Source: Prorocentrum cordatum
Taxonomy: Eukaryota
Direction of reading: 5' to 3'
NCBI GenBank assembly: GCA_963575745.1
Contig: CAUYUJ010000003.1
Coordinates: forward strand, 1,116,001 to 1,180,000
DNA: 64,000 bases
Below are positions 3,388 to 58,669 of the stretch, piece by piece. The notes beneath the pieces are model-generated. The model was not told the origin of the DNA. It saw only the letters and a program-made list of their open reading frames with translations, and ran no database searches. Position 1 is the stretch's first letter. Each line of letters opens with the position of its first letter. The translations under genes were made by a program, and so were the position numbers.

Positions 3388-4603
3388 CAATTGGTTTCCA
3401 CTGTATGTCTGAGGGACTGGGAAGCGGGGTTTGTTTTGATCATCCCAAATCACACCCCCACCACCGACGGCGGCACCCGCAGGCATCACTGCCAGGCGGG
3501 ATGCCGGGCCCCGGGGTGAGGGTGAGATTTCGGCGGCCTTCGAGACTGGCGCTCGAGCGTGGGCCATTCCCCAGATGCCCACCCCCAGTCGAGGCACCCG
3601 TTCGGTGAGGCTGCCCCCTCCCCCGTTGTGGCCGGGGGTGGGGGTGTCATTGTGGGTTGTCACTGTTTAGTTTGCGGCGGGCGAGGGGGAAGCGAAAAGG
3701 AGAACGCCTTCTCAGAAGGCGGCGGGACTCCCCAAAAACCCTCGCGCCTTCAGGGACGTCTCCTGCGTCTTCGGGGAAGGCTCAGGAAACTTCTCAGACG
3801 GCCGGGGACCTCCGCGCCTTCTGAGAAGGCCCGCCCCTTCTCACCTCCCCTGGGCTTGCCGCCGAAGGGGGCAAAATGCATAACACGGAGCGCCAACCAT
3901 TTGATCACATCACCCCCTCGCGGTCGTCGGCACTGACGGGCTTTCTGCGCGAATGCCGAACACGTCAACTCTTTCCTCGGCCAGCACCTCCACAGAAACA
4001 GCGCAGGCTAAAAAGTCGCGGCTCTATTCCAGGCCGCGCTCTGGCACTGCGTTCCCGAGGCACGAGAGCTGGCATCGAACAAGGGCGCTCTGTGGCTCGC
4101 ACTCCGTTGGGTGCGCGCGCCATGTCACATCGTACTTCACAACGAAGTGATCTAAACGCAACGCCGGCGCAGTTCGACCGTCAAGAAAAATCCGCCGCTG
4201 CGCTTGCTTGATGGTGGAGTGTCAGGGCTTGCTGTTTGTCTGGTTGGGTTGCTGTTGTTCCCCAAACCCTAAGATGGGGGTTCTTGTTGTCCTCAATCTC
4301 CGAAGGATTACTGTGACCGCGCGGACCTTCCTTTCACCTCCTCCTCCCTTCTCCTCCTCCCGCTGGCAAAATATGATGATGCCAAATGATGGCGGTAAAT
4401 GCGATACGGCATGTTATGGTATGTGATGTTATGATAGTATATGATATATCACGTTATGTCAGGGCGTGGCATGTTGTTCTGTTATGATGTGAAGATGATG
4501 ACGATGACGATGCTCATGATGGTGATGGTGGTGGTGACGATGATGATGCTGATGATGATGAAGATGAAGAATATGATGATGCTGCTGCTGGCGATGAAGC
4601 TGC

Positions 4604-4662
<59 letters not shown>

Positions 4663-4789
4663 GCTGAGCAAACTCTGAGGATGTCTCGAGCGAGGCGCGG
4701 GTTTCAGCACCCCCAAGTGGGAGCCGCCAAGGGGCATTGCACTCCTCCGTTCGCGCCCAAATGGTGGCGGGGATGTCTCGAGAAGTTCT

Positions 4790-4935
4790 CTTGTTTGCAT
4801 GTTCAACATCCTCCGCTTTCGGAGCAGAGTTGGAGGATGTCCCGAGCGAGGCGCGCATGTTCGCCCCCAAGGGAGGCCAGATGTTGAGGATGTCTCGATC
4901 GGTTTGCCTGTTTTGGTGGGCAGACTCGTGGGCAC
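4790..4935 (+). repeat. Dispersed repeat with hairpin, copy 1 (copy 2 at ~23291-23430)
   Basis: Both copies share CATCCTCCGCTTTCGGAGCA...TGGAGGATGTC..GAGCGAGGCGC. Confidence 0.7.
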
Positions 4936-4944
4936 AGATTCTCC

Positions 4945-5240
4945 CCAGGATGCCACAAGAGGCTCCAGCAGGCTCCAGGAGGCCCCAGGAGGCCACAGGA
5001 GGTCCCAGGAGGCATCAGGAGGCCACAGGAAGACTCGAGAGGCCACGGGGTGTCCCAAGAGGCCCCAGGAGGCTACAGAAAGCTCCAGGAGGCCTGAGGA
5101 GGCTCCAGGATGCTCCAGGAGGCCGAGGCCACAGGAGGCCCCAGGAGGCCACAGGAAACGCCAGGAAGCAGCGGGAGACCCCGGAAGGCAACAGGAGGCC
5201 CCAAGAGGTCCCATGAGCAGGAGGCATCAGAGGGCCACAG
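4945..5240 (+). repeat. CCAGGAGGCC-type ~10-bp minisatellite
   Basis: Tandem degenerate units. Confidence 0.8.
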
Positions 5241-6405
5241 GAGTGGCTCCAATCCCATGTGTTTACGTATGCTCCCATAGGTTGGGCCTCACCTGGAGCA
5301 CGAATCCTTGGCGTGTTACGTATGTTTCTATAGACGGTCCTTCTTATGTGCATCTAATCCTAAATGTTTTACATATGTTCCTTTTAAATTGGGCCTCCCC
5401 TGGGGAACGACTCCTTGGTGTTTTATGTGTGTTCCTATGGATTGCTCTTTTCCTGTGGCCCCAGCGTAGTGGGGCGCGCGAAGTCCTCGGCCCTGTCGTT
5501 GCGACGGCGAGAGGGTCAGCTTCGACGCTGTCCGATCCATTTCTGCCACCATCCTGCGCTCTTCCTTTCCCGCGCGGATTTGGCTCAAGATTTCGAAGTG
5601 TGCCTGGGTGAGAACGGGGCTATCCGCCCCCATTTCTAACTGGCGAAACACCCTCCATTCTTTCATATATGTATATATATAGAGAGAGAGGAAAAACAAA
5701 GGTTTCTTATGTTCCATCCGTTTCTTTTCTGCTTCAGCTTCAGCATCGGCCATTTTCTGCGGACAGAACATGCGTCTCTTAGAGCTGGCGCCAGCGTGGG
5801 CGCTGCGCTACGGCGCGCCGCGCTGGGCGCTGTTCCCCCGCATAGGCAGCGAACAGAAATTGCATTTCTCCAATGGAATGCCGGCCTCCCCCCCTGGGGC
5901 GCTTGCAGCGACCGCGGGCGCTCGGTGCTCTCCGGAGCAAACCCGCGCCCACTGCCAACCGACTGGACCGGGACTAGGGGCGGGGTCGCTTGGAGGAGGA
6001 GGCTGAACGCTCCTGGGACGATTCTGACGGCTTGGCCTTAGCGTCTGTCCAACAAGGAGTTCTGGAATCATGGGGGGCCAAAGCGTGATGTCCGACGCCG
6101 CAAGCATGTTTACCCTGAGGCGCGGGCAGTCCCCCTTGCCTTTCCTTTCGTTGCTGAGCGAGTTCTGACTGGCGAAGTTCTAGATTAGTTTGTGCGCTTC
6201 TCTGTTTGATCACTCCTGTTCCTGCTGCGCCGCGCTGGCAAACTGAGCCGTTCTTGCGCGGGGAACAGCCGCCGCTTTCTGCTCGGAAATTAATGCAGCC
6301 CCACGGGTTCGCTCTATCTCACGCTGCATCTGACGCTCTGTGTCAGCCATTTCCTCCGCTGAAGACTTGCATCCCCCCATGATTGTCAATCCGCCTTCTT
6401 CTTCC

Positions 6406-6688
6406 ATCTTTACCCAACTTAGGCCCAACCAGGCCAATATCGTCAAGTAAGGTAGTCCTCACTGTTGGGGTCCATGCTAGCGGGTCAATGGACATCGTGG
6501 AATGTAAAAGGATATGTGTATCCAGTTAAGCTTTGGCTAAGGAGAGTATACAGTATGAGCACGCGCGCGCGGGGGCGGGCGCGGGCCTTTTTCCTCTCCG
6601 ATCCACGAATAGCTGCAGACAGCCAAGCATGCGTCTGCGTATGTGGTTATATTTACATCGACGGCGGCAGGGAGCGCATGGCAACGAC
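6406..6688 (-). repeat. 3' LTR of the Tpt1-carrying element
   Basis: Copy of 15733-16016. Preceded on the - strand by the PPT-like run GGGGGGAG (about 6688-6695). Confidence 0.8.
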
Positions 6689-6699
6689 TCCCCCCGCGG

Positions 6700-9210
6700 C
6701 GGCCTGGCCGCAGCGCCGGCCAGGGCCGACGTTCTACCATCGGGACTCTTCGTTCCCGACGGCGTCGAATTACAGCGCGCGCGGGCGCGAGGCTCTCGCA
6801 GCCGCCAGCAACCCGCAGGTCAAGCGGCATTGATCACACGGCCATTGGCCGGTGATAGCAGGTGCTGATGGATGGGGCGAAGCTCCAACAGCCTCGAGCC
6901 CTTCCACGTGCGCCTCTTGTCGCATTCTCTGGCGATAAGCTAGGCGCGCATGCGCCGGCACAGCCTCCAGAAAGTCATTGGCGTAAGGCGTCTGTCGCTT
7001 GCAAGCGCCATCCGCTGTCACGGCGCCACGGGTCCCAGTCGTCATTGCGCCGATCGGGCCAGTTGCTGTAGTCGCCCTTCCCGCGGTCTTCTCCCGGCCC
7101 TTTGCTCCAGCCCCGGCTGGGGGTGCCCCTCCACGCGCTCCAGGCGTTGTCAGTAAGGGTTCGGCTTTGCCCCCTGGCCCAGGGGCGGCGCTATTCCTCG
7201 GGAATCTGCTGGGGGGGGCGACGGCGCCGCGCCGCCAGACTCAGTTTGGCGGAAGTCCCTGTACAGGCACGGGCGGACAGCGGGCGGTGAGGCCGTGCGA
7301 TCACTCCATGGCTATCTCGGTCGCTTCCCGCCCTTGCCCTTGCCTGTAGTGTCTGGAGGGGGTGGAGCAGCGCCGCGTGGCGCGCTGCCCCTGCCACCCT
7401 CGTTCCGCGGAAATGCAGCCGCTTGTTTCGCTGTCGCTCTTGCGGGCGGTGACGCCGAAGGGCCGTGCGGCCGCTTTCTGCTGATTGACCGCGCAGCCCG
7501 TGCGGTGGTCGCCACGGGCTGGCGAGTCCGAGCCCCTCGTGCCATTGGCACGCGTGAGGGGCGACGCTCGTCATCCGAGTCATGGGGCGCTGACACCCCG
7601 TGCTGTGCCCGCGCCTGTAGTGCGTAGACAGCAGCTTCGTATACGTGCAGCGCCCACTTCTCAGCCGCCGGATGCCTGAGCGCGTCGACTGTGAACTGTT
7701 GACCTGGGAATTGCGCGTCTGACTGGGACTGCAGCACGTATTGCATGCAAGCCTCGATGGTAGGCGCGTCGTCTGCAATGTTCGGCAAGTCCTGCCGGTT
7801 CATATATGTATATATACACATATATATAAATATATATATATATGTCCTTGTGAACTAACTCGACGAGCGCGTGATGCGACTTAATGATGTCGAGCTCCCG
7901 AGAGAGTGTCTCACGGAACCTGTCCACCTTTTCGCGATGAACGCGTTTGGCATCATTACTTGCGTGATCCATGTCAACCAGTGTCCACTGGTAATCCTTC
8001 GAGACTTCGATGGTAGCCCTGTGTGCTCGTTCAGCCAGCCATGTCTCACTTGCATCACCTAGGTCTGGGTCATACGCACAGAGCCGTGGCGGATCACTCC
8101 ACATTGCGTATAGCTGTTCTTCGCATGAAGCGCAAGTGTCCGCCTTGTGGTGCGTGAGAAAGACGTTAACCGTGGTGAAGTACGCCACCACCTCATAGGC
8201 TGCCTGTCTGATACGGCACTGGTTGACCTTGCTCGTCACGTCGCCCTGGTATGTGCTCTGGCCCCTGCCGGGTGTGCGTGATCCCGTTCGCCTGCGCATT
8301 GCGCGGCCCCTGAACGCCATCGGCGCATCTGCGGACCGAATCCTTCGCTGGCTGTTGGAGCGGGCACGCCTACCCTGGGCACGCGGTCTTGGCCTAACGG
8401 AGGGAGCCCGGGGTGTGCGCGCGTCTCGATGGCGCACAGCCCTGTTCCCTCCATCTTCTGGGGCGGCCAACTCTTCTCTTGGTTTCCAGAACTCCTCGGT
8501 TTCGTATTCAATCACATTCAAGAGACTGTCGAGGCGCTCTGGGAGATAATCTTCATTCTCGTAACACCATTGACGCTATCCTACGGTAGGCTCAGTGAGA
8601 CCAGTGGCATCAGGGTCCGTTGTGTACCAATCAAAGATGTTCAGTATTCCCATATCTGTACCATAGCCCGTCTTGTCTATGCGCCGGGCCCAAGATGTCC
8701 CACCATTTCCATGGCGGGCAGACAGCTATTGTCCAGCTGGCGGGCAGCGGTGATATACCTGATACGACATCCATCGATGTGCCTGCTTGCGTGCCTGGAT
8801 CTCTCGCGCCTTGTTGCCATGGGCAGGGCGTTTGTCGTTCGGCGATGCTGGGGCCCATGCGAACACCGATCTTTCGGCGGACAGAACTGCCGTCTTGCCC
8901 GCCATAGCGGCATAAGATCGCGCGGTGGCCCCGTCGTAGGCATCCTTTCTCCATCCCTCGCGGTAACGCGCTTGTGTGCGATCAAGATTATTAACAACTG
9001 CTGCCCTGGACATTGTCCGGCCGTCACTGCGTGTATGGTACGGGCCTGGATCCCCACGGTCTCTGAGGAACCGTGCGGCTCCCCAGCCAATCGCTGGTCT
9101 CATCTTGTCCCCAGATATCATTGATGCCTCGTATATGATCCCTTCACGGCAAACGACACATACTATCATGCCGTACCTCGACTTGCGCCCCATGTGACAC
9201 ACGAGGCATA
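6700..9210 (-). pseudogene. C-terminal part of the element polyprotein, unknown function (Cys pairs, basic/Gly tail), interrupted by (TA)n
   Basis: Same-strand ORF fragments 8726..9202 (GMIVCVVC), 7661..8521 (CASC), 7312..7821 (KGKGGKR) and 6770..7045. A TA tract at about 7801-7843 splits them. Confidence 0.4.
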
Positions 9211-9439
9211 GATCGTCTTCCCAGCCTGTGCTTGCTGAACTTCAGCAGCGAGCTCTGCGTCGAAAGGACCAACATTGTGTCCTGCTCGGATCTGCTGCTT
9301 TGACTCCAGCACGTCGACGCACCCGGTCTTGGCGCGGGTGACGACTTGAACCGTTGTTAGCCGTCTATCATAAGTGACGTGCCATGACAGCTTGTTGCCA
9401 GGCGATTCTGAAAACGTGAAGATCTGCCAAATGTTACCC

Positions 9440-10330
9440 CATAACAATACACTGTCCGTAAACATTTGGCCCGTTGGCAGTCTCCAGTGCTGATGCGCCT
9501 CTAAGTGTCGTGCACTCATGGTGGCGAAATATTTGCCGTTGAAGTCTCAAATGTACGTCAAATACTGACCGCTTAGTCCGACCCAAGATAATCCTTAGAA
9601 GCCCCGTCCGGGTGAAGGAAAGTCGGGAATCTATCGTCGCTTTCCTGGCGGATGCGTCGTTCGTCTCTTTCTATTAACTGTTCGGCTTCCGAGAAGCTAA
9701 ACGGGACATGTATCTCCCCGGGCGTCAGCGCGTCAAGATCCTGGATCTCATGCGCGTTTGGGGACACTGCCACCGTGTATGCTACAGTGCCATATTGCCT
9801 GATACCCGTCGTCACGTCATAGAGCGGGGCTATCGTCCCAGCCTGACTGTGTCGCACGTCAGCGTCAGTCAACGGAATCAGTCGTGCACCGTGCTTCTCG
9901 CTCATGCCAGGATCGTATCTGACGCTTCTGCGATATAGGCTTATGATCCTTAGCGAATCGCCGTGCGCGGCCCTGATCAGGAGAGGTCGCGTTGTCGGAG
10001 TTATATGCACATCACTTCCCTGTGACGAGTCAGTCTCCGTTGATTTCGGAGGCTCCAAACCCTTTCTAGGTGATTTCATAGAAGCTCGAGTCCCAGTCCA
10101 TTGGGCGGGAAGTGGGGCCTTCGTGAGCCGCATTTATCTCTACTCCCAACATCTGCACTTCGTGCGGCGAAAGCGTTGCGACCGCATGCATTAACTGGGC
10201 CCACGGGCGATCGTAGCCGGCATCAGTGAGCATCCTTATCAGTACGTCCACTTCCACCCATCCTCCCGACCTCAGCACATGGGCTGAACTGCGTCTAAGA
10301 AGGTGGAGCGCGAGCTTGGCAAGACGGAAT
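9440..10330 (-). pseudogene. Tpt1/KptA (RNA 2'-phosphotransferase, ADP-ribosyltransferase fold)-like domain, frameshifted
   Basis: Motifs in the correct order: LAKLALHLLRR (~LSKxLSxxLRH), RSGGWVEVDVLI (~DxDGWVxVDxLL), IRAAHGDS (~IRANQGHS), ALTPGEIHVPFS (~GLxPMxRxHVHLS), ETANG..FTD (~SxNGVWLTD; needs a frameshift). Confidence 0.65.
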
Positions 10331-11689
10331 GCTTCACCGCGGCCCAGCCCGCTCGCGATAGCATATAGCTTCGGGCGTAAGTGTGGATACATCGGCACCA
10401 AAGCATTGTCTGATCCAGGCAAATTGCGGCTCTCGATCGTGTTATACCGAGCGCGCAAATATCTGTTTACCTTGGCACGCTCGGCCTCTGGCAGGTGCCT
10501 GATGTAATCCAACAGCGGGTCAGCCACGAAGTCCGCGTAGGCGGATAGCCGATCACTTAATATCGCCCGGGCCATTCGCTGGCTAGGGAGCATTGGCCAA
10601 TTATTGTGTAATTCATCTATCAGTCGTGTTTTTTCAGGGGTCAGTGCAGAAATATTGTTTCGACGGTATCCTGGCGATGCAAGAAGAGGGACTCTTTCGC
10701 CATTGGCGAGTAACCCCTCATAGGTCAGCTCTTCGCGTTCGAGTCCGATCTGGGCTAACCCGCCTACGTCCTCATGCGACGGCCACAGTGTCATCATATC
10801 CTCCTCTGATATCTGCCTCTCTTTGGGAAGCGGAAGGTTACCGTCGATGAGAAAATAGTGTTTACCAAATGGCGTTCCCTCATCTGGAACATACGGACGA
10901 ATTTGCGGGTCGATCTGTAGCGCAGCAACAAGTTTCAGTCCGGTTGCTTCCGCGCTCTCTTCTTCCCTTCACATGCATTATCGACATCGTCGGTGCGCTC
11001 GCCTTCTTGATCGGCCGCAAAGTCCAGCTCTGTTTCCTCTTCAACTTCAGACGAGGATTCGTCGGACTCATCGACAGTCACGGCCATGATCTGTTTCCTG
11101 CACCACTTTTCGTATTCCGTCTTCTCATGCTCGATTATTTCTGCTTTGGCCCTCTTGTGGTGGGCATCCGCCCATCTGCTGTGCATCCGGCACCTAGGCG
11201 TGCATCTATCCAGGTGTATGGCTGTCGGGGGCCAATCCATGCATCTGCAGCGCCTTCGCGCCAGGTGAGGCTTCGAACCCTGGGTTGCGACCATCCTGGT
11301 CGCCCTGAAGCATCCAATGTTCGAGCATATGTAGATCTGTTCGATGCGGGAAGCAGCCGGCGACGTGATGACGTAGACGTTCCTCATTCTCTCAAGCTTC
11401 TCCTTCGACATCGTCGGGGGCTGATGCGCCGGGGCTCCGAACCTCGGATCTTCGGGCTGCGTGAGCGGCGCCCCGCGGGGGTTTTCGAAGCGCGGCTGTT
11501 TGCGATCAACCGTGTACGACCGCTTGAATCCAGGATGAGAAAGCTCCGGAAGAAGCCGATCGCCAAACTCCGGACGATGTCCCTGGCAGAACCGAGCCCC
11601 GTGGGCAGCGCAGGACAATGGGCCAAGTCAGGCGGGGAGGTAGGCAGGCCATGATGCAGAAAGCGGCGACGGCGTGGCGAGAGGCGCAG

Positions 11690-14543
11690 CCTTCTTGCGG
11701 CGCAGGTACATGCAATCTTGTCGGCTCAGGGGACATTGCCCCTTTTGCCAGCGTCGGCAGATGACGGACTTCTTGAGCCTCCCATCTTTCATGGTAAGGG
11801 AGTCCTTGTCCCCCCCACCAGTCTTGTCGCCGCTGGGTCTTGCCCCTCGCATGTTGATCTGCTGTGTTGGATCCTCCTGTTATCTTCTCCCCGGTCCTTC
11901 AGTATCTGGTTTGCAATTCTCCCCAGCAACCATTCATGCGACTTCATGCCCTTTCCGTACTTGTCGTTGCTGTTGTCATACATTGCAAGATTCATCGTCA
12001 TGCAAGGGCACTTCTTCTTCTGTTTTTAGAAGTGGTTCTCTATGGAGGGCCTGAAGGACTTGTGGGGTGTCTCCATCCAGTGTCACCCTCATCCATTCAT
12101 CGTAGAAGTGGTAGAGGTCGCGATCCGCCTCTTTGCCTTCCCTCTTGATCTAGATGGCCATAAGGTCCTCGTAATTATACACCTGCCATGGTCTTCGCGA
12201 GTAGTGACATGGGTTTGAATAGTGCGAAGAATCTATCTTCCTGCAAGTAATCCCCCGTCCTTCATTAGGGCAGAGTCAGCGAGATCAACCTCGTTAGCAA
12301 GGTGCCCTAAGGCATGAGGAGCACTTGGGCCCCTTTGAATATCATTAATGTTCGCGATGGGGTCCGCAGCTATCCGTATGTCCAGGTTCCCGAAATAAGG
12401 CCCTGGGTCTTTCAGAGCCTTTGCCTTGACCTGTTCTGGCTCGAATGCCTCGGCAATCCACTTTGACGCCAACACATGATTTTGTTGCGAGCTCGATGCC
12501 ACCGCTCGAATGACAGATTTCTTCCGCATACGGAAGGATCCCGCGTCTGGCAGCGGGTCCAGAGATATCTTGTCGATTCGATCTGCCGCAATCTACGGTG
12601 TCACCACAGGTACCAGACTGCCGGAGTCCGGGAGCCCTGGGCCCCCGCCTCCTCCTCGAGGTCCCGAGGGCGGTGGTCCCCCACCCCCCAGATCGCCTTG
12701 CCCGGCTCTCTGGGCATCGGCGTATCGTCTGACTCTACGGTTCGCAGCATCCTCATCTTCTTCCTCGGAAGATTCATCATCCTCGTCGTCGGAATCTCCT
12801 TCCTCGGAATCCTCCTCTTCGGAGTCGTCTTCATCGTGTGAATCGTCTTCGTCGTCGTCATCGCCGTCGCCGCCATCATCAGGGTTACCGCCCCCAGGCA
12901 CGCGACCGGACGCACCCTTCTTCTTCCCCGGCCCGTCTCCGTCACCGTGGGCACTGCCCTGGTGTATGGGGCTGATCGCCATCCCCTGCGAGGCCCCCCG
13001 CAATGGCCGCGGTTTTCTTCGGCCGGGCTGGCGTGGTGCATCCAGGGAAAGTGCTGACAGGCGGTCCGTTCGGTTTCTTTTTCTTCCTTTCTTCCTTCTG
13101 TTCCTGTGTTCTGCTAGGGGCCAATTCCCTTTGATGGCTGTCATTGTCACTGGCCTTGGCAGCGGCAATCTCTGATTCTCTCATTATTGCCTCCGCCTTT
13201 TCGCGCATCTCCTCAGCCTGCGCTCGCGCTGGTTTCCCCATCGCGTGCGCGCGCTGTTCGGCTTTCCCTTCAAGCTCGTGAATGCGTCGAAGGGCTACTG
13301 CCTCTTCATTGGCCCTTTGCTTGTCTCTGGACCGATTGGCTTCTTCCTCTTCTTGCATCCTTTTCTTCACCATGGCTTCCTCCTCTTCATGCTGTCTTCT
13401 CAGCGCTGTCTCATGGTCACGCATGCGATCAAACTCGCACTGCGCGCGCCGCCTCATGACCCAATCAAAATGTTGTTCACAAAGCTGCCTCTGGCATCTT
13501 TCGCATGTGCGCGGAGCATCGGCCACGTGGCATGTAAAGCACCTGGTTGCATCTGATGTAGCCGGCCTGGATCGTGAATCCTCCCGCTGGGACATCGCCC
13601 CACGAACGGGGCAAATCCGCGTCGCCGATGCGGAGACGGCCCCCCTTGCCGCGCTTGTCACACCTTGGAGCCCTTCCTGCGCCATTTGCATGGCCTGTTG
13701 TCTGTAGGATTGTTCACGACGTGCTTCCCATTCCTGCACGTTTGATACAGCTTCTCTGTGGAGACGCTGCTTTGTCTCCTCAGCTTCGGCCTGAGCTTGC
13801 ATTTCAGCTCTCCGCAGTGCTTGCATTGCCTCTTCTGCCTCGGCTTTCGCGTTTGCGTGACCTGCCTGGGAAGGTGCCACAACTATCTGTGCATTATGTT
13901 GCAGCGATTTCAACTCCGTCGCCTTTCGTAGGGCCGCCTCGTGTTCTGCGAAAACTTCTGCCCTGACTCGGACCAACGCTTGGGCTTCTCCGCATGCCTC
14001 CCCACGAATCGCCATAGCTGAATCAGAAACACGCTGGAGTTCGGCCTGCACACTGGCTGCCCCAATGTGTGCCTTCCTGGCTTCGTTCTCCATCTGTTGC
14101 TGTTTTGCCTGGGCTTCCTGTAGGGCCATATCTGCTGTCCTCTTCGCCTCGACAGCGTTCTGTTCCAATCGGCGCCCCTCGGCGATGGACTTGGCTGCGA
14201 TCTGTTCCGCCTCGGAAACGGACCGTTCCTGCGCCGTGGTTGCCTCTCGGAGCTTGGCGCGAACCTGTTTCTCGAACTTCGCGCGGAGTGCTTCCTGGGT
14301 CTGTTCCGCGACCGCCTGTTCGGCCCTTCTCTGCTCCTTGGCCCATTTATCTGCTTTTAGCGCAGCCTCGTAGAGGACATCCTTCTGCTCCTTTTCCCTT
14401 TTGAGAATTGCATTAAGCTCATGTTCGGCCTGCTGTGCCGCCCGTTCATCCTGTGGACTCTGCCTTGCTTCCATGTCTGCCATCATTGCGCGCATGGCCG
14501 CTATTTCGGAAACGCGCTCCTGCTCAAGTTGGTTTTGCCTCAT
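11690..14543 (-). pseudogene. Decayed Gag-like region: long coiled coil, acidic/Gly linker, capsid-like segment, CCCH zinc finger
   Basis: ORF 12942..14543 (E/A/Q/R/K-rich coiled coil). Then 12233..12529 (KWIAEAF...LDIRIAA...LLAGR*IL), a YNYEDLMAI segment near 12155-12180, ORF 11789..12001 (KSHEWLLGRI...NR) and ICRRWQKGQCPLSRQDCMYLR (about 11700-11763, final His read as Arg). Resembles dinoflagellate LTR Gag from memory. Several frameshifts. Confidence 0.6.
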
Positions 14544-15732
14544 TTCCTGTTGCAGCTCCCACTCGCGGTGTTTTCACGCAAAGCAATTGCGTTGCTTCGG
14601 TGGCAGACATTCCCGGCAAAGATACGCGAGATTGCACGGGCCACATTGGACGGAACAGCCCCGGCACACGGGCTTCTGACATGGTAGATCATCGGCAGTC
14701 CTGCCCGGGCACCGACTCTCGTGGCCCAGCTCGCACGCCGGCCCGCGATTCGCACATGACTCCCTAATTGAGAATCGAGGCGTTGATGATCTGGACAGGG
14801 AAGGCCCGTGAACGGACCCCCGTGAATTGCGACTTCGGCCGCCCCTCCCCGACCTCGACCTCCTGGAAATCGAGCCGGGTGACTCGAATAATTGCCTTCC
14901 ACGGGGTTTCAGATCAGGGGCCGGCTCGGGGCCCTCTTGGCCACTCGAGCCGCCAGGCTCGGTCATCGGGCGCTTCTCGCACGGAGATTGCTTCGCGTCC
15001 ACCGGGTCGCCCCCAGGGGTTTATCCGCGACGTGAATCTCTATCCCAGACCCCCCGGGCGAGGCCGCGAGGTCCTTTGACGTCCGACACTGCCCCGCGGG
15101 CTTTGTGACTTCCCCTTTCTCCGGACATAGTCCGCATCCCACTTCTCCGGGGCCCGATCGGACGCCGATCCAAAACTCTTCTCGGACGAGCTCGACATCG
15201 CCATCGCCTTCGCAGGCGCGGCGACGCGCGCTGTCGTCGTCCTCGCCCATGAGCTGGAGTTCGCGACATAGGCCTGATCCACGTCCCCCAACAGCGGGTT
15301 GCGCGGGCAGGGCTTTCCCCCATGCCAATCATCCTCCTCGTCGATGTCATCGCCTCGTATTGGGGGTGTCTTCTCGCCCACGGTTCACAGGGGTATCATC
15401 ATTTCCCGATGGCTCACATGCTGGAGACGGGGTTCGTCTATTGGCGAAGGGGTTCTTCTTGATCAGCTTCTCAATGGCCTTGTCATCCTCCTCTGCAGGT
15501 GATATTGGTCTCTCAGGTGGTTGATATTATGCAGCATTGTTGCCTTTGTCTCTCGGATGCGTTGCGAGGTCGACTTCGCCGGTCCGTCGACTCGTTCCTA
15601 AAACATTTCCATACCTTTGGGGCTGGCCCCCCCTCCCGTGTTCTTCTCCACGTTCACGGAGGTACTCGTAGTTGCCCCATCTTTATTGACGTGGTCGACT
15701 GCCCATAACCCAGAGCCTTCGGCTGATAATCC

Positions 15733-16016
15733 ATCTTTACCCAACTTAGGCCCAACCAGGCCAATATCGTCAAGTAAGGTAGTCCTCAGTGTTGGGGCCC
15801 ATGCTAGCTGGTCAATGGACATCGTGGAATGTAAAAGGATATGTGTTTCCCGTTAAGCTTTGGGAAAGGAAAAAAACGCAGTATGAGCACGCGCGCGCGG
15901 GGGCGGGCGCGGGCCGTTTTCCTCTCCGAACCACGAATAGCTGCAGACAGCCAAGCATGTGTCTGCGTACGTGGTTATACATACATCGACGGCGGCAGGG
16001 AGCGCATGGTAACGAT
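15733..16016 (-). repeat. 5' LTR of the Tpt1-carrying element
   Basis: Copy of 6406-6688. Imperfect inverted termini ATCGTTACC...GGTAAAGAT on the - strand. Confidence 0.8.
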
Positions 16017-16151
16017 TTCCTCTCGTGCTCAGCTTCCTGCGGAAGCATTTGAGGCGCCTCCGAATGTTGTTGAATCAGGCGGGCACTCTGGGCCAACAAC
16101 ATCAATATTTCCTTCTCTTTCTGATGCCGTGGAGGCCGGTCCACCCATCCA

Positions 16152-16280
16152 CAAGAAACCCGACCCTGAGACCCCAGGACGCCCATTGATTTGTGGCGTG
16201 GGAACGCCCACTTTCCACAGCAAAACCATCGAAACCCAAGGAAACCCAGGGCACCCTGGATGCATATAGGGTGTTTCTTG
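16152..16280. mobile_element. 129-bp MITE-like repeat, copy 2
   Basis: Colinear with 3259-3387 and has the same termini. Confidence 0.55.
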
Positions 16281-16999
16281 GCATGGGCCTCCACTGTACT
16301 TCATCTGGGCAGCCATCAGCTCACCAAGGAGATTCTCTCTTGCGGCGGACCTTGCCTGATTCTTTTGTTACCATTCCAGGGACATGGGATACTGGCAGTT
16401 GTGTTCTTGTAAATCAATGCAGTCCTCAAACAGCCAGACAACAATGCAATGCCTACTCGGCAAAAATATTACCCGCGCGCTGGCCTTCGAAATGGGCAGT
16501 TTTCTCTCCCCGATTTTCCCGGTCAGCGATTCTCTTTTGCCGTTCGGGATGTATGATCCCCGGGCCCAAGAGGGTATACAATTATTTTGTTTGGAACAAT
16601 CCCCGCCGAAACCTTCGGCGTTTGTTCCCAACGGTGCGCGCGCCTACTGGAACGACGCGCGCGGGGCCCAGCGGTCTCGGCCGGCGCGGCGGCTGGGCCA
16701 GGTCGCAAGGCTATGTTCCCCGAAAGTCTTGCAGCCCCAGGGCCCCTGACGAAAGAAACCAAACCACGTCCCTGGAGCGGCAAACCAGCCCCCAAAACGA
16801 GTTTTGCGCAACCCCAAAACTTGTTCGGAGAGAATACGCAGCCTGTTGAAAGAAAAAAGGAAGAACAACTACAGTTGGACGAGAAAGAGGCGGGCGACGA
16901 AGGAGGAGGAACTGAGGCGGACATTTCCCTCCGCCTCCTGATCCGGACGCCACGTCCTCCTCTGACAACGGGTCGCATGTCGCGTTTGACCAAGACGCC

Positions 17000-19040
17000 G
17001 TGAAGTGGTGGCTGGCGTTTTCGTGATATTGTGTTTTATCCTGGTCGGTTCGTTTTTGACCCAAGGTCGTATCTGGCAATATGTTATGCGATCTTTTGTT
17101 GTGGACTGGCCAGCGTGACGTCGTGGCGCCTTTCGCCTTTGTTATGGTTGATATTCGGTCGTGGGTGCTACTGTTTATCTATATGGCCAGCCTGGGCTTG
17201 GCGCGCGCGTCGCGTATGATGGGCCGCCCGAACTCGGTCTTTGCTGAATTATACGCTATCGCGTTGTGTTCATGTCTCATCTGTTCTATATGCATATGTT
17301 CGTTTCTGTTGCGATATCGACGGGGCAGCGCGACGTCGCGACGCCCGTCGCGCTTGATATGTCGTCTAATCGGTCGTCGCCGCGCCTGCTTCTTCCCGTG
17401 GTCAGGCGCGGGCGCGACTGCGCCCTTGATTCGCCGTTGCTGTCTTTAGCTGTGTGCAATTATGTTACGCTCGATCAAACATTATCCTGCGTTGCTACCA
17501 TATGTTAAATTATGTAGCCGACGGGGCGGCGTGACGCCGTGACGCCTGTCGCATTTTACCCGTCGTCCGATCGGTCGTTGCTGCGCTTTTTTTGTGCTCT
17601 TGGCCAGACCGACTTCGGCGCGCACCTCGCGATTGATTCTTCGTTGGTACGGCCTAGTATGTCATGATGTTATTATTCGACTGTATGTGTCCTTTCAGTT
17701 CGCGTATGCTCTGTTATGATCAACTCTGTCATCGTGCGAGTTGGCATGGCATGATGTGACATGCCCTGTGGCACCGCGTGGTGACATCGGATCGGTTATG
17801 CTTACGCCATTAACTCTGATGTGGCTTAGGGTGTGATCAGTTCGTTATTCTATGCGACATGGCGTTCTAACAAATCATGGTATATCGATATCGTTGCCGC
17901 GGGGGTAGCGTTAAACTAATAATTATGCCTTGGTATGCTGGTTACGGTGCGGTGCATTCGTTATATGATTCAGATTTCATAATGTTCGATGGCACTGTGC
18001 TCTATTGTGCGTGTTTTGTTCCCGGCGGGCGACCGTGACGCCGCGGCGCCTGTCGCGCTAGATACGTCGTCCGATCATTCGTCCTTGCGCCTGTTCGGTC
18101 CTGTGGCCAGCCTGGCCTCGCAATGCTTTGTCATGTTATGAAACTCTGTGAGCCTGTGAATATGTGTTCTGTTGTAATGTGGTACGCCATGGTGTGTAAT
18201 GGTATGATATGTCATACTACGCTATGCTATGGCGTGCCCTGGCTTCGGGTGCTCTGACATATGAGGTGTTGTTATGCTCTGATTGCTTCATGAAGCCATT
18301 GCATGATTTTTTCCTCTGCCGTGTCCTCTTACGCGCCGCTATGGCATGCTCTGAATTGGTACGCGCTGTTATGTTATGGTGGCCTGCTACATTGGTATGT
18401 GAAGATATAATGTTTGTCGCGCTACGTCATGGTATGAATTGTCGTTGTTTGGAATGGTATGTGTTTTGATGGTGTGCTACGGTGCGCCGTGTTATGTCAC
18501 TGTGTGGTAATATGAGATGTTATACCTTCGTCTGCTATGGTATAATATGATATGGCATGACATGACGCGTGGTGTAGTGACACGTTATGCGTGACCTTTT
18601 ATGTCATAGAATATAATGGTATGCTATGCGCTGCTCTGGTATGATGTCGCGTCATATGCCGCGCCCTGTCATGCGATGATATGTCATATGTGTTGCTGTG
18701 TTGTGTGTGGCGTTGTATGTGCCGCGATGACGTGCTATACCATGACATGCCATGCGTTGCGAAGCTGTGGCATGTCCGGTTTGGGCGTGCTCCGGCCAAC
18801 GATGTTTTCATGTGGTACGATTGCTGTGCCATGATGGACGGTCCTCTGCGCTGTGATGCTGTGTTATAGTATGCACGGATTTGCCATGGTGTGCCATGAC
18901 GCGACAAGGCATGTCATGATTTGGTATGTTTACGCTCGGACATGTTATGTTATGTGGTGTGCCGGTGCGTTCTGCGCTGTCATAGTTTACGGTGTTGTGC
19001 TGCGCGGGTTCCCCCTACCATTTACCACCGCTGTCATGTT
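17000..19040. repeat. Degenerate TATGT/CATGT pentamer-rich region with a recurring GCGTGACG..G.CGCC.GTCGC block
   Basis: Block recurs at ~17113, ~17327, ~17529 and ~18033. ORF-poor. Confidence 0.55.
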
Positions 19041-21073: not shown

Positions 21074-21144
<71 letters not shown>

Positions 21145-23054
21145 CATATATATGTATGTATATATACATATATGTACACATATTTACATATATATATATA
21201 TGCATGTATATATATACACTCTCACTTTTCCACGCCCTGGGCTTGACGGGTTGAACCGGTCAAATAAACCCTGCAGCCTCGAAACTGACGGGGTAATGGG
21301 ACACCGCTGCATGGCCCCCGGTTGAATCAGTAGTTTGCACTAGCGAATCATATGCCTCTATACTGTTGTCACATAGTCATTTCGGTTTTTCTGGGAACGG
21401 AATATCCCCAAATGGGTCCCTCAGATGTTCTATCGTATCTGACTCTCGGGGGCTCAGTACTTCAACCGGTGACCGAAAGATTCCCTCAAACTCTGCTCTC
21501 CCAAAAGCCTGCGACCGGGATACCTGAGGGATGGTTGAACCAAACCCCGGCATACCGACGCACTCTGCTAACACCATGCCGCGATCGTTAGCTAAACCAC
21601 CGTTCAAACCGATCGCCTGGCTCGCAGCATTGCGGGATTCTGCTTTCAATGATGAGTTCAACAAGCTGATCTCTGAATCGATGAGCGCGGATAACTCTCG
21701 ATCAACGTCCAATTCCCTCAAGTCGGTCTTATCTTGTTGTATGAAGGGGATCATGATTCGGCATGTGTATCAAAGGAAACTCTATTGGCATCATGGATTG
21801 TGTACCGCGGCGCGGCTGACTAGCCAAGTCGTCGATGTGAACAACATCAAGACGCTCGGCAGCTGATAACAACTTCTTGGCCAAAGGGCCCTAATATTTT
21901 GACCTATTGATTGGTAGATGACCTTGTTGTACTATAGACACTTGGTCTCCATTCTCAATGGCTGGAACCTTGACCGATGACACGTCTGACTAACAATATC
22001 CGGTAAACGAATCTACTGTAGTCGATATGTGCGTGCGCGAAGGCGCCACACCCGGGAAGAGGAGAGGGCGCGCGCGCGAACCGTTTCATCTTGAAGCAAC
22101 AAACACAAAAAACGTTCGGCATAAGTCAATGGCCCACGGCAGCAAATTACGACGGCGGCGTCGGCGGGCGACGGCATGGATGGAGTTATATTAACTTTCT
22201 CTAGGATCGATCCTCCCCCTCATCGCGGACCCAATTATACAATGTACCATCTGATTCTGCGTCCCAGCGGCACTTCCTAGACGGCCCCAGGGATGCATTG
22301 ACGAGTTCGTGCCCCCACCCACCACACCAGCCCAAGACAGCCCAAAGGCCCCCAGGGAAGCCTAGAGGCTCCGAAAAGTCCCCCCAGAAGGTTCCAAACA
22401 GATCCCAAGAGCCCTCATACGTCTCCCAATGAGGTCGCCCCTGGGGCCTCCAAAGGGCCGCAAGAATCCACGCAACAGCAGCGGAGGAAAAAAAAAAGAC
22501 GAATCAACAACACCTACACGCAGGCAGCGCGAGAGGAAGCGGCAAACACCACATACAACATCGTAAGTCACACAGATCCTCGTTTAGGGGTCAGCGGAGT
22601 GGCCTGAGCCTCTTGAAAAACGAGGGACTCTGGCGATACATAAAAGGAGACGAAGTGATGAAGACAAGGAAGAGGACGAGGCAAAGGGGGGAGGGCTGGA
22701 TGTGAGAGGTAAGAAATAGGGAGCAGGACGAGAAAGCAGGCGGGGGGAGTAAGAAAAGGAGGAACAGACAACGAAGACGTGGAGTGAGGAGGAGTCGGGA
22801 GAAAGAGGAGGGAGAAGAGGAGGAGGAGGAATGTGATGGGAGCAGTGAGGAGAGGAAGAGGAAGGAGTATGAGAAGGAGGGGGGCAGTTCGGAGGAGGGA
22901 GAGGCGTAGCGAGGAAACGGGCAAGAATTTCACTCCCCCCCATGTTTGTCCTGGGCATACCGCTCGGATTTGAACCCTTCGGAGCCCACTCGGGGACGAA
23001 CGATATTACACGGAGGGCAGGAGAACCATTCCACCTGTCTCTTGACAGCTGATG

Positions 23055-33719: not shown

Positions 33720-34886
33720 TCGATGCTCGAACCTGATCTTGCCAAATCGGGGTCCCATCTTCCTTCGCCCAGCCCGTAGCCCGTGGGAGGTGCGGACCTA
33801 TGAGACGATCTTCGACCACAGAGTCGCGAAGCACACGGCTTGGAGGCGCGGAGGGGTGGTTGAGCTTTTTATTTTTTTCGTGTACACAGATATACACAGG
33901 CATACACCCACTATATATAGGGTGTCATGCACACTGTGGCTCGTGTAGGCATGTATTACATGTATATGCACTATGTATGTGGGCTGCACAATCTAGACGC
34001 ACGCGTGTACACACATATATGCACTATTGGGTACACACAGTATGTTTACACACAGCATGCATGCACACATTACATGCGTACACGCACGCACACACACACA
34101 CACCATATACACAGTCATGTGGTAGGTGCGTCTTCGAGGGGCCCAGCAGGGGGCCACCAGCCTGAACCCATGAATACACCCGACACGCGGGCCGACTTAA
34201 GTTCAGCGTTTCGGGGTTGCTCCTCCATCGTCATTCCTCCCTTGAGCGATGTGCGCAATGATCGCGGGTGGGGAGGGCAAGCTGTATTTCGACATCACCT
34301 ACACCCGCGCGAACTTCTGTACAGTGACTGGAGGAGGCGCGGGGCCGTGATTTGGAGCCCCGTCGTCGACAAGACGAGGAGGAGGATGAGCAACAGCAAC
34401 AGGAGGGGGGAGGAGGATGAGGAGGAGCAGGATGAGGAGGGTGAGGATGAGGAGGAGGAGGAGGAGGATCGAGGACCCAGGAGGAGGGGGAGGAGGAGCT
34501 AGGAGGAGGATCGAGGAGGATCGGGATGAGGACGATAGGGCGGAGGATGAGGAGGGCGAGGAGGAGGACGAGGATGGCAGGATTCTCGAGATGTCGACGG
34601 GCCCACGCGTTCCATGTCTAGTCGCAAGCATGTGCACTATCTGATTTGCTCGTGTAGTTTCTTGGGCGCTGGCGACCCCGACTCCGACCGCCAGTTCGAG
34701 CTCCAGCGGACGAAAGGCTTGGTGCCACGGGATCGGGGCATGAGCTCTTGTACGTGCGTCCATATGATTATATATACACATATATATATACATACATACA
34801 TACGTACATACGTGTGTACGTACGTACGTACGTACCATATGTACGTACATACATACATATACATACCCACATGCATGCACATACGC

Positions 34887-34919
<33 letters not shown>

Positions 34920-35302
34920 CCTGCAGGTATACACATACATGTCTACATACCTACCTGTATACATACACCCATACATACACACACACACACCTACATACAA
35001 ACATACATGCACATACATACATACACATACATACATACATGCATGCATACACACACATATATACATATATATATATATACGCGCGTACATGCACACATAC
35101 ATACATGCATGCATGCATGCATGCATGCACATACATACATTCACACATACATATATAAGCATGATTCCATATACATATATATATATATACATATGTATTT
35201 ATATGTATACACGCTGGAAGAATTGTGACTGGCTGTGCCGATCGGGCATTCCCTCCAGATGTGGTCGGCGTGACTCAATCTATGTTGCTTCAGGCTCCGT
35301 GA
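33720..35302 (+). CDS. Possible small multi-exon gene, unknown product
   Basis: Coding-like islands between microsatellites: NLILPNRGPIFLRPARSPWEVRTYETIFDHRVAKHT (~33730-33836), EGKLYFDITYTRANFCTVTG (~34273-34333), FLGAGDPDSDRQFELQRTKG (~34659-34718), RIVTGCADRAFPPDVVGVTQSMLLQAP* (~35218-35302). Splice joins not verified. Confidence 0.35.
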
Positions 35303-57125: not shown

Positions 57126-57554
57126 TTGAACTCCCACTCTTGAAAAAACCATTTGTGATCCCCCCCCCACCGGTGCACATTGATTCTTTTCCATTGAAGT
57201 GCCCCCACCCCCGGGGCTCGCACCTTGTTTTTTATTAATGAAAATCATCCTGCTCAAACTGGGCCCCTGGCCCCCGGGTTACAACAACAACGGCTCCCGC
57301 CTGAGACTTCCTCGCACTTGATTCAAGAATCGCGCTCTCGCTGGGGACTTCCTTACGATTTATTCAAGAATCGCTTCCTGCGTTCTGGAGTCGCGCTCTC
57401 GCTGGAGACTTGCTTGCAATTTACTGAAGAATAACGCCCTTGCGTTGGAATTTCTTGTAATTTACTCCAGCGCCGCGCCCCCGACACCCAGGCACCCAGG
57501 AGTCGCGCTCACGCTTAGGACTCCTTCACATATTACCTAGGAGTCGGGATCTCG

Positions 57555-58315
57555 CTGCCCTTCGTGGCCCCGTTGCAGACCTTCGTGGCCCCCTTGCTTT
57601 GTTTCGTGGCCCCATTGCAGCCCTTCGTGGCCCCCACGCTTTGTTTCGTGGCCCCGGTGCAACCCCTCGTGGCCTCCTCGTTGCCCTTCGTGGCCCCGTT
57701 GCAGCCCTTCGTGGCCCCCTCGCTTTGTTTCGTGGCCCCGTTGCAGCCCTTCGTGGCCCCCTCGCTGCCCTCAGTGGCCCGGTTGCAGCCCTTCGTGGTC
57801 TCGTTGCAGCCCTTCGTGGCCCCCTCGCTGCCCTTCGTGGCCCCATTGCAGCCCTTCGTGGCCCCCTCGCTTTGTTTCGTGGCCCCATATATGTATGCCC
57901 TTCGTGGCCCCCGCTCGTTCGCGCCCGTGGTGGCCCCATATGCATGCCCTTCGTGGCCCCGCTGTCGCCCTCCGTGGCCCCCCCACTGCCCTTCGTGTCC
58001 CCATTGCTGCCCACAGTGGCCGCGTCTTTACCCTCCGCGGCCCAACATACGTATGCCTTTCGTGGCCCCCGCTCGTTCGCGCCCGTTGTGGCCCCATGTG
58101 CATGCCCTTCGTGGCCCCGCTGTCGCCGTTTGTGGCCCCCTCGTTGTCCTACGTGGCCCTGGTGCTACCCTCAGTGGCCCCATCGTTGCCTTCTGTGGCC
58201 CCGCATAATCTGCCCTTCGTGGCCCACGCTCGTTCGCGCTGTTCGTGGCCCCATACGCATTCCGTTCGTGTCCCCGCTGTCGCCCTTCGTGGCCTACTTC
58301 GTGTCCTTCGTGGCT
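57555..58315. repeat. CCCTTCGTGGCCCC minisatellite (~19-22-bp unit)
   Basis: Many tandem degenerate units. Confidence 0.9.
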
Positions 58316-58347
58316 CTGCTGTCGTTTTCTCTCGCTCTCGGTTTCGC

Positions 58348-58383
<36 letters not shown>

Positions 58384-58669
58384 TTGCCGTCGTCGTCGAC
58401 GTCGTCGTCGTCGTCGTCGTGGTCGGTCCCCTGTCCGTCCCTCTTGGGGTCGGGTCGATGGTCCGCGGCCGCCCCGCCGATCAGCGCTGCCGCTGGCCAG
58501 GCCGACGGTCCGCGACCGCTCCGCCGCTTGCCGGGGCCCGGCCTGCAGGGAAGAGAGGTATACCCCCCAAAAGGGGTTCGATCGAAGACGAAAAGGGCGG
58601 GTATCGAGGGTTTGGGGAATTCGCGTTATTCGACACTCGAGCAGATAAGGGCGAACAGTCTTAAAATGA

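Follow-up and report, generated by a model that had tools for sequence, protein, structure and literature searches.

A 64-kb stretch of the Prorocentrum cordatum genome (GenBank assembly GCA_963575745.1, contig CAUYUJ010000003.1, positions 1,116,001 to 1,180,000 of the forward strand), here called the window, contains a unit of ~9.6 kb at 6403–16015 that is bounded by long direct repeats and filled by a chain of open reading frame (ORF) pieces on the minus strand. There is about an even chance that this unit represents an old copy, now broken, of a mobile family which lacks pol, is bounded by repeats, and encodes one large protein with a core resembling the N-terminal lobe of the enzyme Tpt1/KptA. 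The family is taken to be an undescribed, pol-less, repeat-bounded one in which such a domain is probable, and a long terminal repeat (LTR)-type retroelement mobilised in trans is the best guess for its nature. The present copy is described as old and dead because its ORF chain is broken and its two repeats have diverged by 7%. The unit was first picked out by a prediction made from the sequence alone (the original prediction), which saw a non-autonomous LTR family whose Gag is fused to a Tpt1/KptA-like enzyme in place of pol.

The repeats stand 9.3 kb apart in direct orientation and share 93.0% identity across 286 bp (blastn, E 2.4e-119), close to the ~283 bp originally predicted. A repeat finder splits the pair into 6403–6543 with 15730–15870 (95%) and 6551–6692 with 15879–16020 (94%), and found no inverted repeat pairs. 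The repeat edges are considered sharp and real, as the outer 80 nt past the repeat ends are dissimilar and score like shuffled sequence, with the observed local score reached by 403/500 and 322/500 shuffles. An apparent extension of the repeats into both flanks in a MAFFT alignment was ruled out as chance by the same shuffles. Within the 64-kb window, blastn identified no third copy of the repeat and no second copy of the element interior.

The predicted membership of a repeat family is borne out by a public DNA run, X1, which contains 26% of the sampled window words. At an 80% likeness setting, 4084 X1 contigs align on 4500–18000 at 80–99% identity (292 at ≥99%, 787 at 95–99%, 1393 at 90–95%, and 1612 below 90%), counts which take in two very abundant repeats nearby. 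Each of the 21 interior bins has coverage, at a depth of 29–261 that is summed over contigs and is not a copy number. The summed depth drops from 89.8 in the bin holding the left repeat (6304–6754) to 0.95 in the flank bin (5853–6303), which sets the left limit of repeated DNA in the bin containing 6403; the right limit is masked by an abundant repeat from ~16148. At position 12152 up to 16 distinct X1 contigs are present, all with a letter other than that of the window. These contigs show that the organism of run X1 has numerous diverged versions of the entire 9.6-kb unit.

A contig joint from 6605 to 15935, which skips 9329 and was seen once, was not counted as a solo repeat, since a repeat-only contig fitting both copies gives the same joint. 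Contigs of a further run, X2, fall nowhere on the element, and those of run X3 fall only on simple repeats. The listing of public runs containing window words gave no RNA run. The acidic D/E/S tract at 12779–12881 (15-bp period) is the only interior part with contigs from X3, a second organism, at <95% likeness. This match is simple-repeat similarity and not the family.

The interior consists almost entirely of one minus-strand chain of coding-like, stop-to-stop ORF pieces, as had been predicted (Table 1). Eight of these display the coding-like order of G+C content at the three codon positions, GC1 > GC3 > GC2, with GC2 at 0.43–0.55: 12945–14573 (GC1 0.69, GC2 0.46, GC3 0.59), 12596–13180, 12236–12592, 10938–11627, 10069–10968, 9576–10133, 9169–9546, and 7664–8575. 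Two junctions in the chain are single in-frame stops, at 12593–12595 and 11628–11630, and the remaining junctions are frame changes. Two of the frame changes are proven breaks, because protein relatives read through them. P0001 spans the break between 10938–11627 and 10069–10968, with 87% identity to the 89-aa end of the former (E 5e-44) and 70% to the start of the next. P0026 spans the break between 10069–10968 and 9576–10133; its N-terminus matches the former piece and it shares 73% identity over 74 aa of the latter, with the frameshift falling within about 10066–10133. If the chain was formerly one ORF, the present copy carries about nine breaks, of which two are verified and the others may be introns, and the intact ORF would have been well over 2,000 codons.

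Table 1. Features of the repeat-bounded unit, in window coordinates and in the order of the minus strand.
Feature	Position	Strand	Remarks
Right direct repeat	15730..16015	-	5' (upstream) relative to the ORF chain
30 nt just inside the upstream repeat	15700..15729	-	expected primer-binding-site position; begins TTATCAGCC on the minus strand
543-aa piece	12945..14573	-	long E/A/Q/R/K-rich, helical-looking region with Cys/His cluster CFTCH...CERCQ...C
Basic and acidic tracts	12236..13180	-	basic then acidic D/E/S tract (12596–13180), then 12236–12592 in the same frame past one stop
CCCH-like Cys cluster	11631..11879	-	followed by 10938–11627 in the same frame past one stop
230-aa piece	10938..11627	-	C-terminal 89 aa match the N-terminus of P0001
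300-aa piece	10069..10968	-	N part of the module: winged helix, LLRR (LRH in relatives), SGGW, LMHA
186-aa piece, different frame	9576..10133	-	PLLIRAAHGDS, then conserved KHGA, VRHSQAG, IRQYG
Coding-like pieces	7664..9546	-	9169–9546, 8729–9241 (Cys pairs CLVCH...CVVC), 7664–8575
Purine run	6688..6697	-	GGGGGGAG in minus-strand reading; adjoins the left (downstream) repeat, directly upstream; resembles a polypurine tract by position only
Left direct repeat	6403..6687	-	3' (downstream) relative to the ORF chain

Outside the module discussed below, the pieces resemble little that is known. The putative coiled coil of the original prediction reflects amino-acid composition. For 12945–14573 there is no Pfam match and none in PHROGs, NCBIfam, or PDB at E ≤0.01, while 12236–13180 gives only low-complexity, sub-threshold Pfam matches (Nop14, E 0.0064). 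The CCCH zinc finger of the original prediction is represented by a sub-threshold match alone, with zf-CCCH (PF00642) reaching 14 bits on 11631–11879 (E 0.048) against a gathering cut-off of 20.5. The pieces at 7664–9546 have no Pfam match and no PHROGs or NCBIfam match at E ≤0.01. PDB sequence searches covered four pieces outside the module and gave one match in all: at E ≤1, 7664–8575 gave nothing and 8729–9241 only a composition-type CpcN match with 0 stretches passing. An (AT)21 microsatellite at 7802–7843 lies inside 7664–8575, where it is translated as IYIYIY, and similar AT runs are found near 21080–21200 and 34760–35080.

The chain nonetheless appears to be real coding sequence, since it has 33 relatives and its frame breaks are bridged by some of them. 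These were identified with 10069–10968 in a phmmer search of 1.84 billion representatives (33 at E ≤1e-3, 14 at E ≤1e-10, and 4 at E ≤1e-30), and the majority are short fragments. P0028, a repeat protein among the 33, was treated as a false match. Diverged relatives at 27–44% identity include P0030 (378 aa), P0016, P0020, and P0008. A word-indexed protein search returned one relative of the 300-aa piece, P0001, and three with an alignment query. P0001 is a EukProt record labelled Pyramimonas sp. (a green alga), the only named label among the relatives.

The relatives define a conserved module of ~1 kb of the chain (roughly 10560–9600), in which conservation at the protein level extends down to 25–30% identity. 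At its core is a winged helix with a strand after it. In alignment A2 it consists of helices followed by A.RLg.L...LLRHss..V.sSGGW.e...i...l.daGydRaWArlmHA, and then a variable insert. Past the insert A2 reads P..PLl-IR-...-G(H/D/Q)S-lR, with more conserved sequence following in alignment A3. When 20 relatives were scanned against Pfam (E ≤0.1) there was no family of interest. Two metagenome scans and one viral scan (2.9 million viral contigs) gave pattern matches only, none of them confirmed, and a viral structure library held nothing usable, with a root-mean-square deviation (rmsd) >14 in all rows shown. The protein searches made found no cellular full-length counterpart of the chain. The minus-strand piece 9169–9546 holds QQIRAGHNV, which MAFFT sets on the IR...GHS motif; this may be a further, degenerate occurrence of the motif, or it may be accidental. 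A continuation of the P0030 C-terminus into this piece was ruled out (BLASTP E 41).

The absence of pol motifs across ~9 kb was noted in the original prediction and agrees with the profile searches. Pfam was scanned (E ≤0.1) with 137 stop-to-stop ORFs of at least 45 aa from both strands of 6403–16020. The gathering score was reached by 0/137, and there was no row for reverse transcriptase (RT), RNase H, integrase, protease, DDE/transposase, recombinase, or capsid. Rescanning the 14 largest minus-strand pieces at E ≤1 had the same outcome. PHROGs and NCBIfam contributed nothing except one phrog of unknown function (E 0.0024). Given the span of the coding-like pieces, a 3-kb pol could not lie hidden among them.

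The likeness of the module to the N-lobe of Tpt1, which binds RNA phosphate, is seen mainly through its relatives. AlphaFold models P0030, with A2 as input, at a predicted local distance difference test (pLDDT) score of 76–93 for residues 10–145 and 190–199; it is poor elsewhere, with a mean of 54. The only compact alignments of this model in Foldseek are to Tpt1 enzymes, with Runella Tpt1 7kw8 at rank 2 (prob 0.60, rmsd 2.9, 63 columns, 24% identity) and 8tfz at rank 36; no Foldseek match reaches E ≤1e-3 (E 1.0). When VIA-align compared the model with 48,161 chains, Thermococcus kodakarensis Tpt1 9ld3_A ranked first with Z 8.0, a value inside the typical background in which the best Z is 7 to 8. 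The alignment to 9ld3_A covers 78 aa (chain 2–82) with an rmsd of 2.2 and 23% identity. Runella Tpt1 7kw9_A ranked third (Z 7.1) and mouse TRPT1 7yw2_A fourth (Z 7.0). The three Tpt1 chains have identities of 20–24%, compared with 4–20% for the other 47 rows listed. As the Z values lie in the common background range, the structural case rests on rank order and on this higher identity. PMC12678800 gives 9LD3 as a T. kodakarensis Tpt1 mutant complex.

Profile comparison points in the same direction at a lower level. Against A7, an alignment of 25 KptA relatives, hhalign aligned 41 columns of A2 covering the helix and LRH..GW (prob 44%, E 2.3e-4), and the IR...GHS strand aligned separately (E 0.035). 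With local default settings the score was 26.7, which corresponds to a prob of only 4%; none of the 86 column shuffles went above 23.9 (mean 14.7, sd 2.6). Against E. coli KptA itself the prob was 11.8%. Among the aligned rows the motif His of LRH is found in 16/20 and the Trp of GW in 17/18. Out of 12 rows printed, seven align at the strand and are conserved on either side of it (P0030, window, P0016, P0024, P0010, P0026, and P0034), and all seven carry the Arg of IR. P0030 and P0024 have GHS and the window copy has GDS. Taken together, these motifs are closer to Tpt1 in the relatives than in the window copy, on which the idea was based. The chance that this winged-helix lobe is akin to the Tpt1 N-lobe is put at about two in three. 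The Tpt1-like assignment of the original prediction is partly supported, for the N-lobe, at the level of the fold, of motifs, and weakly of profiles, but has no significant sequence match in Pfam or PDB.

Beyond the GHS strand there is no statistical support for the rest of the enzyme. The catalytic tetrad of Tpt1 is Arg-His-Arg-Arg. For the T. kodakarensis enzyme, PMC12678800 lists Arg17, His18, Arg65, Arg118, and Arg136. The window copy reads LLRR, with Arg at the position of the motif His, and IRAAHGDS. On account of these changes, His to Arg and GHS to GDS, it is not expected to be active, and enzymatic activity is unlikely for this copy judging from its residues. The motif table has no placeable Arg of the lobe that binds nicotinamide adenine dinucleotide (NAD+), either in the window copy or in relatives. 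By eye, HGA, [SV][IV]R..Q.G, and R.YG in P0030, the window, and P0016 follow the KptA order HGT, SIR.QGL, and R.Y, and the spacing from GHS to HG is 20–22 residues compared with 19 in A7. This motif order is only suggestive and may serve as a lead.

Several results weigh against the favoured reading, those on Tpt1 kinship being as follows. The Pfam model PTS_2-RNA (PF01885), which gives 160.9 bits on E. coli kptA as a control, has no match at E ≤1 to the window pieces or at E ≤0.1 to the 137 ORFs and the 20 relatives. With phmmer against PDB (E ≤10), 10069–10968 matched no chain, and 9576–10133 matched a single unrelated one, a mitochondrial ribosomal protein (E 1.2); neither found Tpt1. The A2 profile placed Tpt1 8tg3_A fourth in PDB with E 2.2, below three unrelated glycosidases. 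In the VIA-align ranking an ESCRT-II winged helix comes second with Z 7.5, and generic winged helices reach Z ≤6.4. Such results would fit a generic winged helix that binds nucleic acid or protein, part of an unknown structural or regulatory mobile-element protein and sharing the Tpt1 motifs by chance or convergence. This is possible but less likely than not. It is favoured by the marginal statistics (PDB profile E 2.2, Foldseek E 1.0, Z ≤8.0, ESCRT-II 7.5), by the 97 chains at Z ≥5, by a reversed-profile control that scored 22.7 in hhalign against 26.7 for the real profile, and by an insertion of ~100 residues, relative to Tpt1, after the helix-turn part and ahead of the IR...GHS strand. Against it, three of the top four among 48,161 chains are Tpt1, from three domains of life and with the highest identities listed; three methods (PDB profile, Foldseek, and hhalign) picked the same Tpt1 segment; and agreement with the Tpt1 motifs is better in the relatives than in the window copy. 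Under the favoured reading of a Tpt1-N-lobe-like core, the protein probably binds nucleic acid through this domain, and the large protein might grip a phosphorylated nucleic-acid end or a 2'-phosphate by means of the lobe.

The original prediction went further, to an enzyme that could remove or ADP-ribosylate phosphates at RNA or cDNA ends during replication, or counter host defence. This is unlikely, although the N-lobe likeness with its motifs, the motif order by eye past the GHS strand (spacing 20–22 vs 19), and a purine run and ORF direction that fit the layout of an LTR element speak for it. Past the GHS strand hhalign found no alignment to the KptA relatives in any of three modes (local, global, and zero-threshold). 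AlphaFold models of that part are unreliable and unusable, with pLDDT <50 in P0030 and 44.8 for 9576–10133, and Foldseek listed no Tpt1 and no usable row for the latter poor model. The silent Pfam model and the lack of a Gag family also count against the enzyme. The first Arg of the catalytic pair, that of LRH, is kept in only 8/19 rows, and its frequent loss would argue against a conserved catalytic role. A complete Tpt1/KptA enzyme is not supported, in view of the silent model, the missing NAD+-lobe alignment, the unusable fold, and the replacement of His by Arg. Slightly less probable again is an algal LTR-type family in which pol has been replaced by a giant protein with a working, diverged, Tpt1-derived NAD+-dependent module for end editing.

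The retroelement part of the reading also has points on both sides. The LTR type is the best guess because the repeats are direct, the ORF direction and the purine run at the downstream repeat fit, and there is no transposase; such a family would spread with replication enzymes borrowed in trans. The purine run GGGGGGAG, polypurine-tract-like in the original prediction, stands where such a tract would be expected, but it is a signal of position only, and a weak one since the minus-strand outer flank of the other repeat is likewise purine-rich. At the expected primer-binding site (15700–15729, minus strand) the TATCAG hexamer is reminiscent of the primer site for initiator Met-tRNA in plant copia elements; a tRNA scan found no tRNA genes in the whole 64-kb window. 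The TTCC flank duplication originally reported is readable at 6402–6405 and 16017–16020, but the TCC at 6403–6405 is also how the right repeat copy starts (15730–15732). As the two copies have TCC in common there and the flank on either side is a pyrimidine run, the letters are ambiguous and a target-site duplication cannot be called. TG..CA termini are absent from the repeats on either strand, the minus strand beginning TCGTT and ending GATGGA. No Gag or CCHC family appeared among the 137 ORFs at E ≤0.1, leaving the predicted Gag-like segment and Gag fusion with no family match and no evidence. Of the features that define LTR retroelements, the long terminal direct repeats are the only one established.

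These points leave room for an element that is not a retroelement at all. The repeats could be the ends of a DNA-level element, virus-like attachment repeats, or two short-repeat insertions, around an interior that is a multi-copy gene family or viral relic. Such an origin is doubtful. It is consistent with the lack of TG..CA, of a callable duplication, of RT in the unit, and of Gag, and with a protein family unlinked to known transposon families in Pfam, PHROGs, and NCBIfam. It is opposed by the direct orientation of the repeats with 0 inverted pairs, and by the 137 ORFs having matched no transposase, recombinase, or capsid family. The depth of 89.8 in the left-repeat bin is of similar order to that of the interior (29–261), whereas the short repeats nearby reach thousands, and the 2.9 million viral contigs and the viral structure library supplied no relative. 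The original picture of a non-autonomous LTR family mobilised in trans is accordingly upheld for the repeat-bounded, pol-less, multi-copy unit, while the LTR hallmarks are absent or ambiguous.

The remainder of the 64-kb window looks gene-poor and repeat-rich. To the left of the element lie an (ATG)60 array at 4484–4662 and an array of 10-bp period at 4943–5217 (consensus CCCCAGGAGG, 27.9 copies, 68% matches). Summed X1 depths of 5177 and 5946 (bins 4500–5401) mark 4484–5217 as an abundant satellite-like repeat. A different very abundant repeat is found at ~16148–16676, starting ~130 bp beyond the right end of the element, with X1 depths of 3388 and 2553. Loose X1 contig ends accumulate at 16148 (89) and 16206 (48). 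None of the 36 other window ORFs of at least 200 aa outside the element reached a Pfam gathering score; a MINT_RAM7 match at 57461–58645 (46.7 bits against a cut-off of 108) is probably low complexity. A scan of the window against Rfam identified no family.

If the module descends from Tpt1, this would be a selfish element carrying the chemistry of nucleic-acid phosphates or ADP-ribose. It would then offer a new setting in which to look into what Tpt1 does beyond tRNA splicing, which is still unclear. Were the module a working NAD+-dependent one, it would be the first mobile element known with such chemistry, which might heal or mark the nucleic acid of the element itself or disarm host defence. 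Even without Tpt1 kinship, a large, coding, pol-less, repeat-bounded family unmatched in Pfam, PHROGs, and NCBIfam, and with no significant PDB sequence match, would merit inclusion in repeat libraries for green-algal genomes.

Non-autonomous LTR retrotransposons without pol are known and include the large retrotransposon derivatives (LARDs), whose interiors are described as non-coding, and gag-only elements such as BARE-2. The window unit resembles these in its long terminal direct repeats, its long interior without RT or integrase, and its multiple copies. Like LARD-type elements it would require movement in trans, as it lacks RT and integrase yet is multi-copy. It differs from LARDs in that its interior is a long coding chain conserved in diverged relatives and in that TG..CA is absent. 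LTR retrotransposons with an extra or captured ORF usually keep gag-pol or a recognisable fragment of a host gene. They share with the window unit a foreign-looking protein module inside a repeat-bounded unit, whereas here only the unknown chain is present. Literature searches over titles and the opening parts of abstracts found no description of a transposon bearing Tpt1.

The closest known counterpart of the module is Tpt1/KptA/TRPT1, whose solved structures are its best structural matches. An N-terminal winged-helix lobe leading into a strand seems to be common to the two, and LRH, GW, and IR...GHS occur in matching order. Relatives of the module often lack the first catalytic Arg, and the window copy has Arg in place of His. 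Further differences are the lack of a Pfam match, ~100 extra residues inside the lobe, and no detectable NAD+ lobe. Tpt1 is a free-standing enzyme of ~180–230 aa, whereas the domain described here is one part of a very large multi-domain protein encoded by a repeat family.

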